Of a stretch of DNA of 64,000 bases, positions 40,001 through 55,604 are shown in pieces. The stretch is from NCBI GenBank assembly GCA_964524885.1, contig CAZGEJ010000016.1, forward strand, positions 28,629 to 92,628. Direction: 5' to 3'. Each line of letters starts with the position of its first letter. The first letter of the stretch is position 1. Source of the DNA: an uncultured Candidatus Binatia bacterium (GTDB lineage Bacteria > Desulfobacterota > Binatia > HRBIN30). The notes under the pieces are model-generated. The model searched no databases and was not told the DNA's origin. It was given only the letters and a program-made list of their open reading frames with translations. The position numbers were made by a program, and so were the translations under genes.

Positions 40001-41131
40001 CAGGGGCGCGCCGAGGCGATCGCCGACGACGGCGACGATGGGACGCACGACGTCCTGCTGGCAGCGACCGGCGTCGTCGAACATCTCCACGGTGACGTCG
40101 CCACTGCCGACGGACAACAGGGAGACGTGGGTGGGGCCGGCGATGGTCGGGGTCACCACCGGCGTCCGCACGGGCGTGGGTGTCAGCTCAGGCGTGGGCG
40201 TCACCGAGGCCGGGGTCGAGGTCGGGCCGCCGGGGGTCGGCGTACGGGTGGCGGGACGATTGCCGTCGCTATCGACCGGGATCACCAAGGCGATCTCGGA
40301 GATCAGGGCATTGCCGTCGTAGCGTCCGTTACCGACGGCATCGAAGGTGCGGTTGCCGTTGGCGTCGACGGCGAGGAAGTCGTCCTTGGCCGGATCGAAC
40401 AAGCCGTCGAGGTCCGCGTCGAGGAAGGCATCGACGTCGAGGTCGATGTACGGCTCGCCGTCGAGGGTACCGTTGTTGTTGGCATCGGCGAAGGCCTCAC
40501 CGTCGAGCTGGCCGTTGGCATTGGCATCACGGAAAGGCTCATTGGGGTCGGGCCGACCATTGCGATTGCTGTCGGTATACGCCTCGCCACCGTCGTAACG
40601 GCCATTGCCGTTTTTATCGAGGTACGACTCGCCACCATCGAAGCGACCGTTCGAGTTGAGGTCGGAATACGGCTCGTTGCCGCGTGCCAGAACGAGAATG
40701 GTGATCGGGTCACTCGGGTCGGCGGTACAGAGGGAGCGGAAGGTCACTTCGGCCGTTCCGTCGGGGCCGGTCTTCGCCTCGGCATCGATCAAACCGCGGC
40801 CGCGCTCGACATAAAACGAGACGTCGACGTCCGGCACCGGTCGTCCGCGCACATCGCCGATGATGACGGAGACGCCGGTCGTTTGGTTGAGGAGACAGAA
40901 GCCCTCGTCGGAGATGAGTTCGAGGGTAATGTCAGCGGTGCCGGCGTTGAAACTGATGCGCGACGGTTCGCCGACTTCGGGACGCGGCGTGTTTTCCGGT
41001 TCGGGATTGCCCTCGTCGTAGGCACCTCCGCAACCGGCCGACGACACGCACAGCCCCGCCAACACCGCGACCACGTAACCGAACCGCACCCCTCTGCTCC
41101 GAGATCCCATGGAACACATCCTCCCCATCAT
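34073..41131 (-). CDS. Giant (2352 aa) repeat lipoprotein/adhesin with 11 Ig-like modules bearing DxNxNG Ca-binding-type loops
   Basis: SAGC lipobox; repeated units GD..GRP..FFVE.GRG..T..DG.A...SLCP..EPITVVA..RG.EPFTDLN.NG..D.GEPFTDLP.EAFLD; P/T-rich linker and tail. Confidence 0.85.
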   Translation of the reverse strand: MMGRMCSMGSRSRGVRFGYVVAVLAGLCVSSAGCGGAYDEGNPEPENTPRPEVGEPSRISFNAGTADITLELISDEGFCLLNQTTGVSVIIGDVRGRPVPDVDVSFYVERGRGLIDAEAKTGPDGTAEVTFRSLCTADPSDPITILVLARGNEPYSDLNSNGRFDGGESYLDKNGNGRYDGGEAYTDSNRNGRPDPNEPFRDANANGQLDGEAFADANNNGTLDGEPYIDLDVDAFLDADLDGLFDPAKDDFLAVDANGNRTFDAVGNGRYDGNALISEIALVIPVDSDGNRPATRTPTPGGPTSTPASVTPTPELTPTPVRTPVVTPTIAGPTHVSLLSVGSGDVTVEMFDDAGRCQQDVVRPIVAVVGDRLGAPLADVPITFFVETGRGLLPRQAITDEDGRASVNFRSLCPANAHENITIVAAVRGVEPFTDLNSNGVFDAGEPFTDLPNEAFLDGDDDGAFDPAAGDLLLWDPNGNGAFDPNGNGVWDADVIRSAKAVLLPRSPVPLPPDFALTGISQLSFSAGTDIEFEMFTEGGACIVNAVADVVVVAGDSAGRPAAPDAPIAFFSEIGRGTIPAQARTDADGVAQVAFRSLCGSSAAAEPITVTALTRGPEPYLDLNANDRFDGGESYFDRNRNFRYDGGEPYRDLNNNGRPDAGEPFRDWNDNGRLDGDAFADANDNGVLDGEPYIDLPREAFLDADGDGRYDPFVGDRLLFDTNDNQTYDDGGNGRYDTDNVIVASVVMVPHREEDGGPAQDPLGSLPTGAAQLFVAADPGSILVVSEAGVCSPVTATISAAPTDALGRVLNPGTPVAFFVEAGRGSVQGAALVGTNGSADAQFHSLCPQDLNNPIDVAAAVVTREPFDDVNGNGRWDAGEPFTDLPSEAFLDGNGNNLYEPQLGEFLIADADGDGQYDPGSNGTYDARVVLVGKTVIVPRSAEAPPTEPLREPTDVSRLNFSAQAEDVRLNLFDEFGRCRSGVTANIVALAGDSQGNALAGVRVGFFVAPGRGVVSQSAVTTVDGVATGTIVASCPPNAAEPITVVAAVRGKEPFTDLNGNRVYDAGEPFVDLPRDAFLDVDRDGVFEPSLGDFLVWDANQNGQYDAAGNGVYDTDNILTSETLLIPFRNGMPAAGVLSTRTAVSRLGFTSFAGSSEPVGVREYELVMFGADGRCRVNVSPTQIKVLAGDLRGRPVPPETAIALFVESGRAVLAESVRTDDEGLALATFHNLCPADADQPITVVAAVRGMESFTDLNSNGVYDVGEPFLDEPIEIFLDGNDNGIFEPLAGEFLIHDANRNGLYDRGPSPTGGNGVYDADVVLADVAHVIPTDSAGQRMSDPLAPAFKRPMSIEATPDDVTMTSVSPDGTCDANASAVLTTLVTDLRDRPVNPAARVHFYVEQGRGSVAGASYTAGDGRAQVLLRNKCTANFKEPITVVAVTVGSEPYVDLNSNQRYDTGEPFTDLPNEIFLDGNDNGVYEPQSGEFLVRDLDGDGLYDAGGNGTYDANTVLSVTFRVQPIGTELVPEDAFREARGVTSMSFQLGVDDVAYEIFDAAGRCQVDVPVSLTALAGDARGRALADVPIAFFAETGRGLVGPVAATDATGRAISTLRSLCPADAMDEITVVAATRGGEPFTDSNGNGRRDTNEAFVDLPPDVFLDGNRNGVFEPNLGDYLVYDEDGDGQYDAMLNGRYDNDRVVSSQAVLIPTRFGLPEFDILTKKTSLSSLSFGAGTEVRFEMFDENRNCIVNELGDIVVLAGDFAGRPVPPETAIGIFVERGRGVVVEQVLTGPEGDGQTQLHSLCPAGNAFTEPATQPITVVAAARGSEPFADLNNNRRHDLGEPFVDYPSEVFLDSDNDGVYEPQRGDYLIHDANGNGAYDPGSNGVYDADIVVAETLLLFPWIAGDRGPAADPLDLGPLPVAQIAITAEPQRLAMFDENGACITSETTDVSATPFDTSGAALEGFAMVSFFVEPTRGGMPTSAFIGVEGEARASFRPACPQGVDHEEPITIVAAMRGVEPFTDVNRNGRFDPSEPFTDLPDDAFLDADDDGAFSPGDLLIYDADGDGTYDGTGNGRYDFDRIVTAAVVIQPIKAEEPAPRPLVDVTSVSRLQLADTSVELVDESGSCIGGVEANVSAQAGNFRGSLAPEGQVVGFFIDGRRGLISESDLTDVQGGVGATLALACDVAAPLAPFAITLATLGPEPFSDLNRNGVRDEGEPYSDLPRDAFVDLDLDGSYTAGVDELLYDADGDGQYDGANGSYDAVNVIAARARVVPRQRGGTPTPTETALPTLTATPTAEPTHTATPPPSATPTVTDTATPEPTPTALPTSTATATSTESPVETPTPDATATP

Positions 41132-42054
41132 CGGTTGGCCAGCAACGTGGCGAAGTCGGCGAAACGTAGTGCCGCAGGCCCGATGACGATTACGAACAGC
41201 GGCGGCAAGAGAAACATGGCAAGCGGGATGAGAATCTTGATCGGCAGCTTACGCGCCGTCTCTTCCGCGCGCTGCCGGCGCTTGGTGCGCAACAAGTCGG
41301 CGTGCGCACGCAGGGTCACGGCCATACTCGCGCCGAGCCGATTGCTCTGGACGATCATGGCGGTCAGCGATTTCAGGTCGTCGACGCCATTGCGCGTACC
41401 CAGAGCGTAGAGCGAATCGTCGCGTCCGCGGCCGGCGCGGAGATCCTCGGCGACGACATTGAACTCGAAGCCCAGCGGGTCGTCGAGCGATCCCCGTTCT
41501 TCTCCCACCTTGGCAATGGCCGCATTGAGTCCCAGACCCGCCTCGAGGCAGATGACCATGAGATCGAGGGCGTCCGGCAGGGCGTGAATGATGGCCGTCT
41601 TGCGGCGGTTGCTCTTTCGGCTCAGCCAGTAGTTGGTGCCGAAGTGGCCGAGACAAAAGGCGCCCAGGGTATGCCACACCGAACTACCCAAGGGTTCGCC
41701 GCTCGTGACCCGCGGCACCAGAATGGCGAGAGCCGGAGCGAAGCTGAGGAGGGTGCGCATGCCGAGAAAAAATGGCAGGGCCGTCGCACTCCTGTACCCC
41801 GCGGAGGAGAGCAGCAATCCGATCGACTGATCGTTGCGGCGAAAGGCGAATCGGCCGATGCCGCTGACGACCGCCATGAGAAAGCCGGGGGCGCCGCCAC
41901 GGGTGCCGGGCTGGTCGAACCGGACGACCTCCTCCCCCGTGGTCAACGTTCTGAGGCGGGCCGCGATCGGCGACTCGGAGGTGGTGATGTAGAACGTCAC
42001 CAGAATGAGCAGGTTGATGATGGCGAAAACCGAGGCCGTGATGATGATCGTCAT
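41128..42054 (-). CDS. tadC: Tad inner-membrane platform protein TadC (copy 1)
   Basis: LPDALDLMVICLEAGLG..R.RRQRAEE.ARKLPIKILIPL. Confidence 0.92.
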   Translation of the reverse strand: MTIIITASVFAIINLLILVTFYITTSESPIAARLRTLTTGEEVVRFDQPGTRGGAPGFLMAVVSGIGRFAFRRNDQSIGLLLSSAGYRSATALPFFLGMRTLLSFAPALAILVPRVTSGEPLGSSVWHTLGAFCLGHFGTNYWLSRKSNRRKTAIIHALPDALDLMVICLEAGLGLNAAIAKVGEERGSLDDPLGFEFNVVAEDLRAGRGRDDSLYALGTRNGVDDLKSLTAMIVQSNRLGASMAVTLRAHADLLRTKRRQRAEETARKLPIKILIPLAMFLLPPLFVIVIGPAALRFADFATLLANR

Positions 42055-42057
42055 CGG

Positions 42058-55090: not shown

Positions 55091-55531
55091 TCAAGGGCGA
55101 CCCTCGTCGCGGAAGTTCACGGTGCGGTCGACGCCGAACTCGCGGCCCAACCAATGAAAGAGGTACGGGATGCTGCCGCTGACGGTCACCTGTGCCAGCG
55201 GCGGCTCGGCACGGGTCTGCCGGATGAGCACCTCGAAACCCGCCACCGTCGCTTCGTCGATGGCGGAACGCAATTCGTCCCGCACTTGGGCCTCGATGCG
55301 CGCCGTGTCGACGACGTAGCCGGCGAGATCACGCTCGTACGATGGGGCGGTGGCGACGGCGCGAGCACCGACACGCGCCGCGCTCTGAACCACGTTCACG
55401 ATGACGAAGGCACGCCCGAATTCGAGCACTCCCAACATCAGCAGAACCAAAACGGTCACGACGAGGGAGGTCTCGAGATGGGCCTGCCCCGACTCGGCAC
55501 GACGTCCGCGCGATACGCGAACGCCAGACAC
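55091..55531 (-). CDS. tadE: TadE-like minor pilin (copy 2); GTG start at 55531 preferred
   Basis: SGQAHLETSLVV..EFG..SAARVGAR; AAGGAG lies 8 nt before GTG 55531. Confidence 0.8.
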   Translation of the reverse strand: MSGVRVSRGRRAESGQAHLETSLVVTVLVLLMLGVLEFGRAFVIVNVVQSAARVGARAVATAPSYERDLAGYVVDTARIEAQVRDELRSAIDEATVAGFEVLIRQTRAEPPLAQVTVSGSIPYLFHWLGREFGVDRTVNFRDEGRP

Positions 55532-55588
55532 GGTCGGCGCTCCTTGCCTCCTCCGAGATGTCCCTTCGTACGACATGCCTGACGCTAA

Positions 55589-55604
55589 TGCAGCCCGCAT
55601 GCCA
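55589..55604 (-). promoter_or_regulatory. Sigma54-like -24/-12 promoter for the upstream Tad cassette
   Basis: Minus strand TGGCAT-GCGGG-CTGCA with correct GG-N10-GC spacing. Confidence 0.45.

Follow-up and report, generated by a model that had tools for sequence, protein, structure and literature searches.

Introduction

In the Tad pili characterised so far, a single bifunctional CpaF ATPase drives both extension and retraction of the fibre and no dedicated retraction ATPase is present (PMC6920026, PMC11300603, PMC12019362), with the way in which one CpaF hexamer switches between the two directions being described as unresolved (PMC11300603, PMC12019362). Comparative work derives Tad systems from archaeal pili and lists ATPase duplications for the type IVa pilus (T4aP) group only (PMC6668835). 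In several euryarchaea the locus for the ATPase and TadC has been duplicated and the pilin locus has not, from which the authors inferred that the pilins are shared, maybe under differential regulation (PMC4858521). Here, a Tad/Flp pilus locus is described within a 64-kb stretch (the window) of the 111,651-bp contig CAZGEJ010000016.1, assembled from an uncultured Candidatus Binatia bacterium, in which the genes for the pilus engine occur twice beside a single pilin gene. A first, sequence-only reading of the window had proposed two motors sharing one pilin, one prepilin peptidase and one secretin, and had already set this against the single bifunctional CpaF of the characterised systems. The literature searched for a second cpaF/tadA inside one Tad locus returned only separate complete loci, such as the chromosomal and pSymA loci of S. 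meliloti, and structural papers; no earlier description of a dual-engine bacterial Tad locus was found in it.

Two engine modules beside one pilin gene

The minus strand of the window encodes, at 41128-55600, an upstream cassette tadE2-cpaB2-cpaF2-tadB2-tadC2 followed by flp-cpaA-tadE1-cpaB1-cpaC-tadG-cpaE-cpaF1-tadB1-tadC1, with every frame intact. The gene list and gene order of the sequence-only reading were thereby upheld in full, and Pfam/NCBIfam profiles back all 15 genes of the locus with the exception of flp (Table 1). Because a Flp motif, an A24 peptidase, a CpaF ATPase, TadB and TadC, CpaB, a secretin and CpaE are present, the locus was filed as Tad/Flp, and judged by its gene content it is a Tad/Flp (type IVc) system with all core features; no gene for a TadD/CpaI-type tetratricopeptide repeat pilotin was found between 33 and 58 kb. 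Pilotins of this type are not universal among Tad loci.

The upstream cassette (set 2) and its downstream counterpart (set 1) are, by sequence, old paralogues. The TadE1 and TadE2 proteins are 39% identical and the CpaB1 and CpaB2 proteins 46%, rising to 56% for the TadC pair, 60% for the TadB pair and 73% for the CpaF pair; TadB1 and TadC1 share 24% identity across 124 residues, and all four platform proteins have a single T2SSF (PF00482) domain each. The remaining parts are single. A scan of all six frames of the window gave one occurrence of the Flp motif, TadE2 aside, and no second Flp-type motif, secretin, peptidase or CpaE was found in the 64 kb, which agrees with the one CpaE counted earlier. 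What stands of the original two-motor proposal is thus the presence of two complete modules, CpaB-CpaF-TadB-TadC(-TadE), next to one gene each for pilin, peptidase and secretin; that both modules share these single parts is our inference.

The locus is best read as one Tad cluster with its engine present twice, and it is probable, if well short of certain, that two separate basal bodies build the same Flp fibre through the same type of secretin and differ in regulation or dynamics. Such an arrangement would have arisen when an ancestral single operon was duplicated in part and in tandem, the duplicates of shareable parts then being lost. Each engine would form its own basal body, with its own TadBC platform and CpaF hexamer encircled by a ring of CpaB, and would dock by the C-terminal hairpin of CpaB onto a ring of the single secretin CpaC. 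Each would then polymerise, and probably retract, the same CpaA-processed Flp pilin, the engines most likely differing in when, where or how fast they do so, as a regulatory or kinetic subfunctionalisation. Two basal bodies are preferred over two motors that alternate on one platform because the alignment ring, the platform and the ATPase have been duplicated together.

The dual-engine locus in related lineages

A search with CpaB2 recovered a clade of orthologues at 64-94% identity, apart from the bulk of ordinary CpaBs at 56% or less. The dual layout is found in the JGI contigs L081/L088 (672-kb contig Ga0498919_0000007), L083 and L084/L089, where set 2 consists of cpaB2-cpaE2-cpaF2-tadB2-tadC2 and lacks tadE2. 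These contigs have the same upstream flank as the window, with genes for an aldehyde dehydrogenase, a CBS protein and a 283-residue protein, and where the downstream flank could be read (L088 and L089) it holds a giant surface protein and a DUF192 protein, again as in the window. The Logan contig L094 carries cpaF2-tadB2-tadC2-flp-cpaA-tadE-cpaB-cpaC-tadG-cpaE-cpaF1, and L091, the closest relative (CpaB2 94% identical), carries tadE2-cpaB2-cpaF2 as the window does. In L092, cpaF2 immediately follows cpaB2 and the genes upstream of cpaB2 are unlike those of the window. In the window, L081, L083, L084 and L094, which span approximately 20-35% protein divergence, flp is immediately preceded by set 2, and a second engine occupies the same place in at least four further metagenomic lineages. 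Because separate assemblies from JGI and Logan show this layout, the two-engine state is not an assembly artefact but a trait inherited within the clade.

The accessory genes of set 2 differ between lineages. CpaE2 is encoded between cpaB2 and cpaF2 in L081 (10889-12073), L083 (10896-12083) and L084 (8942-10111), is 38-42% identical to any other CpaE and is fast-evolving. The window, L091 and L092 lack cpaE2; in the window no remnant was detected, either in the 65-bp gap that separates cpaB2 from cpaF2 or in any other part, and tblastn matched cpaE1 alone. The absence of cpaE2 here is a lineage-specific state, most simply a loss. Since three related contigs carry cpaE2, the lack of CpaE in set 2 is not a design principle, and the suggestion that the two sets serve polar and non-polar pili, which had been built on that lack, is not supported. 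The tadE2 gene was found in the window and L091 only, with 79% amino acid identity between the two products, and was absent when searched for in the cpaE2-bearing relatives L081, L083 and L084. At the place of tadE2, cpaE2-bearing relatives have a gene on the opposite strand for a multi-pass membrane protein of 245-247 residues, without a Pfam match (L081 8651-9394, L083 8751-9488). Because the presence of cpaE2 and tadE2 differs by lineage, the invariant core of set 2 is CpaB-CpaF-TadB-TadC, with CpaE2 and TadE2 as dispensable extras kept in different branches.

Two relatives, L086 and L087, have a single engine in the order flp-cpaA-tadE-cpaB-cpaC-tadG-cpaE-cpaF-tadB-tadC. The CBS-side flank of the window is also found in L087, both contigs have a large gene downstream of tadC, and their single-engine operon is likely the ancestral state. 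The nearest labelled homologues are a CpaC of a Terriglobales metagenome-assembled genome (MAG) at 63% identity, a CpaF (60%) and a CpaC (55%) of Binatia, and a CpaF of a 'Deltaproteobacteria bacterium' at 69%. A scan of GTDB genomes with CpaF2, used as a census and as the source of outgroups, gave identities of at most 62% among the matches listed.

CpaB and its predicted link to the secretin

The RcpC/CpaB protein of P. aeruginosa forms a dodecameric ring with an inner-membrane anchor, and its C-terminal beta-hairpin, which is needed for function, completes a beta-sheet of the secretin N-domain (PMC12307814). Both CpaB1 and CpaB2 surpass the TIGR03177 equivalog cut-off of 71 bits (Table 1). 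A C-terminal hairpin of the form P[ST][VIM]E[VI]LLGE is shared by both paralogue families and by the single-engine relatives, followed by a short set-specific tail that ends in Y or F; the hairpin reads VEVLLGETRTRQPY in CpaB1 and MEVLLGET..Y in CpaB2. The linker in front of it is merely 14-36% identical between CpaB1 and CpaB2. Because the hairpin has been kept despite an overall identity of 46%, both proteins appear, by analogy with RcpC, to be equipped for docking to a CpaC-type secretin.

These features bear on the possibility that set 2 is part of a second Tad system, with its pilin, its secretin or both encoded elsewhere in the genome. In archaea, pilins encoded in trans do serve ATPase/TadC modules, the PilB3 locus among them (PMC4858521), the part of the genome in view would leave room for such partners, and in L092 the genes 5' of cpaB2 are not those of the window. 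Nevertheless, such a split system is unlikely given that set 2 keeps its position directly upstream of flp in the window and four related contigs, that no strong terminator separates tadC2 from flp, and that CpaB2 retains the secretin-docking hairpin of the local family. In addition, the best 120 secretin matches listed include just one CpaC-like protein from the source contig, a listing that does not show the absence of distant second secretins.

ATPases and platform proteins of the two sets

The Walker A (GGTGSGKT) and Walker B motifs are the same in CpaF1 and CpaF2, both intact as first read, and the Asp box and His box each differ by one conservative residue. CpaF2 matches the solved CpaF of C. 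crescentus with an E-value of 5e-140 (470 bits), CpaF1 also matches it, and both score 352-360 bits on TIGR03819, slightly under its cut-off of 373. The two loops described as platform contacts (PMC11300603) are kept and nearly identical. About 14 fixed residues distinguish the paralogues, none of which is catalytic, and the divergence is greatest in the N-terminal disordered region and the three-helix bundle. Several regions are conserved within each set and different between the sets, namely the first transmembrane segment of TadB, residues ~41-80 of TadC, and the three-helix bundle and residues ~391-430 of CpaF. Taken together, the sequence criteria predict that both sets are functional.

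A division of labour as in PilB and PilT, with one CpaF extending and the other retracting the same pilus, had been among the functions first suggested for the two motors. The T4aP systems reached their split between extension and retraction through ATPase duplication (PMC6920026, PMC6668835), and the region in which the CpaF paralogues differ most includes the N-terminus, which has been linked to the regulation of retraction (PMC11300603). This much speaks for the idea, which was nonetheless judged improbable. PilT-type motors use the platform of the extension motor, whereas here TadB, TadC and CpaB have been duplicated with the ATPase, so that alternation on one platform would fit less well. 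Both CpaFs are full-length and equally similar to the bifunctional CpaF of C. crescentus, their platform loops are near-identical, the AIRNLIRE motif of PilT occurs in neither, and the fixed differences between them spare the catalytic residues. A related proposal, to which similarly little probability is assigned, is that the two engines, each with its own platform and periplasmic ring, are co-adapted and mechanically specialised and compete for a common pool of pilin and a common type of secretin, as a Tad counterpart of the PilB/PilT split. For example, one engine would then favour extension, or adhesive pili that last long, and its counterpart retraction, high force or rapid cycling, the split having been reached by duplicating the complete basal body and not just the ATPase.

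The near-identity of the ATPase core and of the platform-contact loops raises a further possibility, that paralogues combine within one machine, with both CpaFs in the same hexamer, both CpaBs in the same ring or TadB and TadC paired across the sets, and so tune a single basal body; cross-species swaps of CpaF have been made between C. crescentus and A. biprosthecum (PMC6920026). It is quite improbable that this is the case here, since the four genes are kept as complete co-linear modules in every lineage and the set-specific regions of TadB, TadC and CpaF, including the CpaF C-terminus, are the signature of two co-adapted modules.

Phylogeny and selection

A tree was calculated by neighbour-joining only from concatenated CpaB, CpaF, TadB and TadC sequences (985 columns, 300 bootstraps) with GTDB outgroups. 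Set 1 and set 2 were each monophyletic at 100%, and the two sets and the single-engine relatives together formed one clade against the GTDB outgroups, also at 100%. Gene position marks set 1 as the ancestral copy; at the sequence level the more conservative member of the pair is the set 2 protein for CpaF, TadB and TadC, but copy 1 for CpaE.

Ratios of non-synonymous to synonymous substitution rates (dN/dS) were obtained for both sets. Against L091, for which the synonymous rate dS was 0.33-0.47, dN/dS was 0.07 in cpaB2, 0.10 over the initial 96 codons of cpaF2 and 0.31 in tadE2. Against L094, where dS is ~1 and thus near saturation so that the values are rough, dN/dS was 0.21 for tadB2 and 0.12 for tadC2, and ranged from 0.13 to 0.36 for cpaB1, cpaC, cpaE, tadE1, cpaA, flp and tadG. 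The upper value belongs to the tadG-like gene, which is fast-evolving, with 48% amino acid identity to L094. Orthologue identities of set 2 are approximately those of set 1. Set 2 is therefore under purifying selection comparable to that on set 1, and the relaxed selection that the sequence-only reading had named as a sign against itself was not found, dN/dS for set 2 being 0.07-0.31 and the set being kept in at least five lineages. That set 2 is a redundant duplicate heading for decay, or an assembly artefact, is very improbable with all five of its frames intact, its conservation among orthologues matching that of set 1 and its layout present in independent assemblies from different projects, even though its accessory genes have been lost by lineage and CpaE2 is fast-evolving.

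Several observations weigh against two basal bodies sharing one pilin and one secretin. In the neighbour-joining tree the two sets do not pair as sisters; set 2 instead groups with the single-engine relatives at 95% bootstrap, and it could have been acquired from a related lineage rather than by duplication in situ. This non-sister pattern is read here as an old duplication with asymmetric, gene-by-gene divergence, which would be older than the split of the dual-engine lineages. The view taken covers 64 kb of the 111,651-bp contig, and another flp, cpaC or cpaA may lie elsewhere in the genome. The CpaB hairpin is also kept in single-engine relatives and therefore indicates competence for a CpaC-type secretin, not use of this particular one. 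Finally, no sequence feature points to the kind of specialisation that would set the two engines apart.

Pilin gene, regulatory sequence and neighbouring genes

The coordinates of the locus and its features are collected in Table 1. The true start of tadE2 may lie farther inside the frame given. For cpaA the listed start at 50113 is the most likely, as the resulting length of 175 residues agrees with that of its relatives, and by Pfam CpaA comprises the A24 peptidase domain alone, the methyltransferase domain being absent. The receiver and ParA/AAA_31 matches of CpaE are weak and under the curated cut-offs; the protein is 64-66% identical to the CpaE1 of relatives and its gene lies in the orthologous position. 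The cpaF1 start and the cpaE stop overlap (ATGA). CpaC has a lipobox, LAGC, at residues 23-26, which together with the lack of a pilotin gene in the cluster suggests a self-piloting lipidated secretin.

Table 1. Features of the dual-engine Tad locus and its downstream neighbour, in window coordinates
Feature	Position	Strand	Evidence
tadE2, TadE-type minor (pseudo)pilin, set 2	55091..55600	-	PF07811 E 3e-10; processing motif G/QAHLE
cpaB2 (RcpC family), alignment-complex protein, set 2	54229..55059	-	RcpC 3e-28 and SAF; TIGR03177 202 bits
cpaF2, motor ATPase, set 2	52793..54163	-	T2SSE 4e-66
tadB2, platform protein, set 2	51793..52767	-	single T2SSF domain
tadC2, platform protein, set 2	50856..51782	-	single T2SSF domain
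tadC2-flp spacer, 476 bp	50380..50855	-	alignment with relatives
flp, Flp-type major pilin, 58 residues	50203..50379	-	motif, size, position
GC-rich hairpin with 11-bp stem, flp-cpaA gap	50142..50168	-	folding, z -4.6
cpaA, prepilin peptidase, 175 residues, single copy	49586..50113	-	Peptidase_A24 4e-13
tadE1, minor pilin, set 1	49092..49574	-	PF07811 2e-14; processing motif G/QALLE
cpaB1, alignment-complex protein, set 1	48234..49067	-	RcpC and SAF; TIGR03177 187 bits
cpaC, secretin, single copy	46717..48201	-	Secretin (PF00263) 2e-47 and T2SS-T3SS_pil_N (PF13629) 5e-12
tadG-like, single copy	45709..46695	-	PF13400 1e-7 at N-terminus
cpaE/tadZ-like, single copy here	44446..45648	-	receiver-like N-domain and ParA/MinD-like domain, weak Pfam/NCBIfam matches
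cpaF1, motor ATPase, set 1	43034..44449	-	T2SSE 7e-68
tadB1, platform protein, set 1	42058..43020	-	T2SSF
tadC1, platform protein, set 1	41128..42054	-	T2SSF
Big_1-repeat surface protein, 2352 residues, signal peptide	34073..41131	-	Big_1 8e-34

The flp product reaches no Flp profile hidden Markov model in Pfam, NCBIfam or further profile searches, and the identification of the gene therefore rests on its motif, size and position. Direct reading of 50203-50379 places the junction between leader and mature pilin at ...KDTKG / QDLAEYGIALAVIAVGAAAV, with the motif G/QDLAEYG, which fits the G/XXXXEY pattern of Flp pilins, followed by a hydrophobic stretch, and relatives have orthologous flp genes of 57-61 residues in the same location. 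A 68-residue open reading frame with an ATG start at 50258-50464 was considered as flp and rejected, being arginine-rich, without a pilin motif and overlapping the true frame. In L086, five tandem flp genes of 57-58 residues each lie 5' of cpaA, at 2878-3941.

The spacer between tadC2 and flp shows little conservation beyond the ribosome-binding site of flp and a short AT-rich CTTGAAA patch, and folds no better than shuffled sequences. The patch (CTTGAAAAATTCTTCC, 50774-50789, minus strand) lies ~400 nucleotides 5' of flp and is conserved to some extent in L081 and L084; it may mark a promoter or the site of a regulator, in which case the leader 5' of flp would be long. A scan with the sigma-70 consensus found no promoter, an Rfam search matched no family, no strong terminator was detected 3' of tadC2, and terminator-like sites were at background level. 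In the gap between flp and cpaA, a strong hairpin is predicted in the window and in all four of the relatives folded (L081 16147-16232, L084 14118-14218, L087 3008-3107 and L094 2976-3069), with z from -2.5 to -6.5; the position is shared and the sequences differ. This hairpin is probably an attenuator or messenger RNA stabiliser that sets the ratio of pilin to machinery, raising pilin. With flp placed between the two engines, no strong terminator 3' of tadC2 and a strong hairpin 3' of flp, pilin could be supplied by transcription from either side.

The start of the Big_1 gene overlaps the stop of tadC1 (ATGA), and its product contains PT-rich linkers and ~22 DxNxNG-like motifs. Next comes a gene for a DUF192+PEMT protein (33089-34060, minus strand). 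A giant gene, for 1324-2352 residues, and a DUF192 gene lie at the same spot 3' of tadC in single- and dual-engine relatives, so that the giant protein may be viewed as a conserved pilus-linked adhesin or cargo, with an adhesin as the probable role. The other genes of the window are unrelated and include those for type I restriction-modification, an integrase, polysaccharides, lipid enzymes and a YhdP-like protein. On the plus strand at 16127-24467 lie hsdM (16127-17746), hsdR (19784-23032), unassigned open reading frames between them and a phage-type integrase (23250-24467); this stretch is missing from the syntenic part of L088 and is possibly a genomic island.

Comparison with known systems

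A lineage that has kept two complete engines beside one pilin gene over a long evolutionary time offers a natural experiment on the bifunctional motor. The ~14 fixed differences between the ATPases, together with the set-specific regions of TadB, TadC and CpaB, form a ready comparison set for what tunes direction, speed, force and localisation. The locus would also divide the Tad parts into those that are modular and co-adapted (CpaB-CpaF-TadB-TadC) and those that are shareable (pilin, peptidase, secretin, TadG and sometimes CpaE), and it is relevant to annotation tools that expect every core gene once per system. Should both engines be plain regulatory isoforms, the locus would be a modest addition to the diversity of Tad systems.

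Compared with the canonical Tad/Flp systems, the Cpa system of C. crescentus and the Tad systems of P. aeruginosa and A. actinomycetemcomitans, the part list and gene order are the same. Each canonical locus has a single ATPase, a single CpaB and a single TadB/TadC pair, whereas all four are doubled here within one locus. The T4aP systems with PilB and PilT (and PilU) likewise have more than one ATPase of the PilT/VirB11 class for one pilin, through ATPase duplication. However, PilT and PilU are truncated, specialised ATPases without platform or alignment proteins of their own, while both ATPases here are full-length CpaFs with a cognate platform and CpaB.

Among 80 Tad loci sampled from GTDB, 34 of them with full 10-kb flanks, motor duplication was seen in one, that of Thermogutta sp. 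MAG23 (L004 3986-13480, NZ_JBAMME010000379.1). This locus reads cpaA-cpaB-[cpaF-tadB-tadC]x2, a tandem motor duplication whose two CpaFs share 58% identity; it arose independently, in Planctomycetota, and has one cpaB and no secretin within 10 kb. Motor duplication in Tad loci is thus rare but not unique.

The closest parallel in design is found in archaeal type IV pili (Makarova et al. 2016), including PilB3-C3 of H. volcanii, where a module of ATPase and platform has been duplicated without pilin genes, as is the case here. The likeness is one of functional analogy only. The archaeal systems are monoderm, with a single two-domain or TadC-type platform and neither a CpaB ring nor a secretin, and their modules are often at separate loci. 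In contrast, the diderm locus described here has also duplicated the periplasmic CpaB, and both copies would have to meet one secretin.

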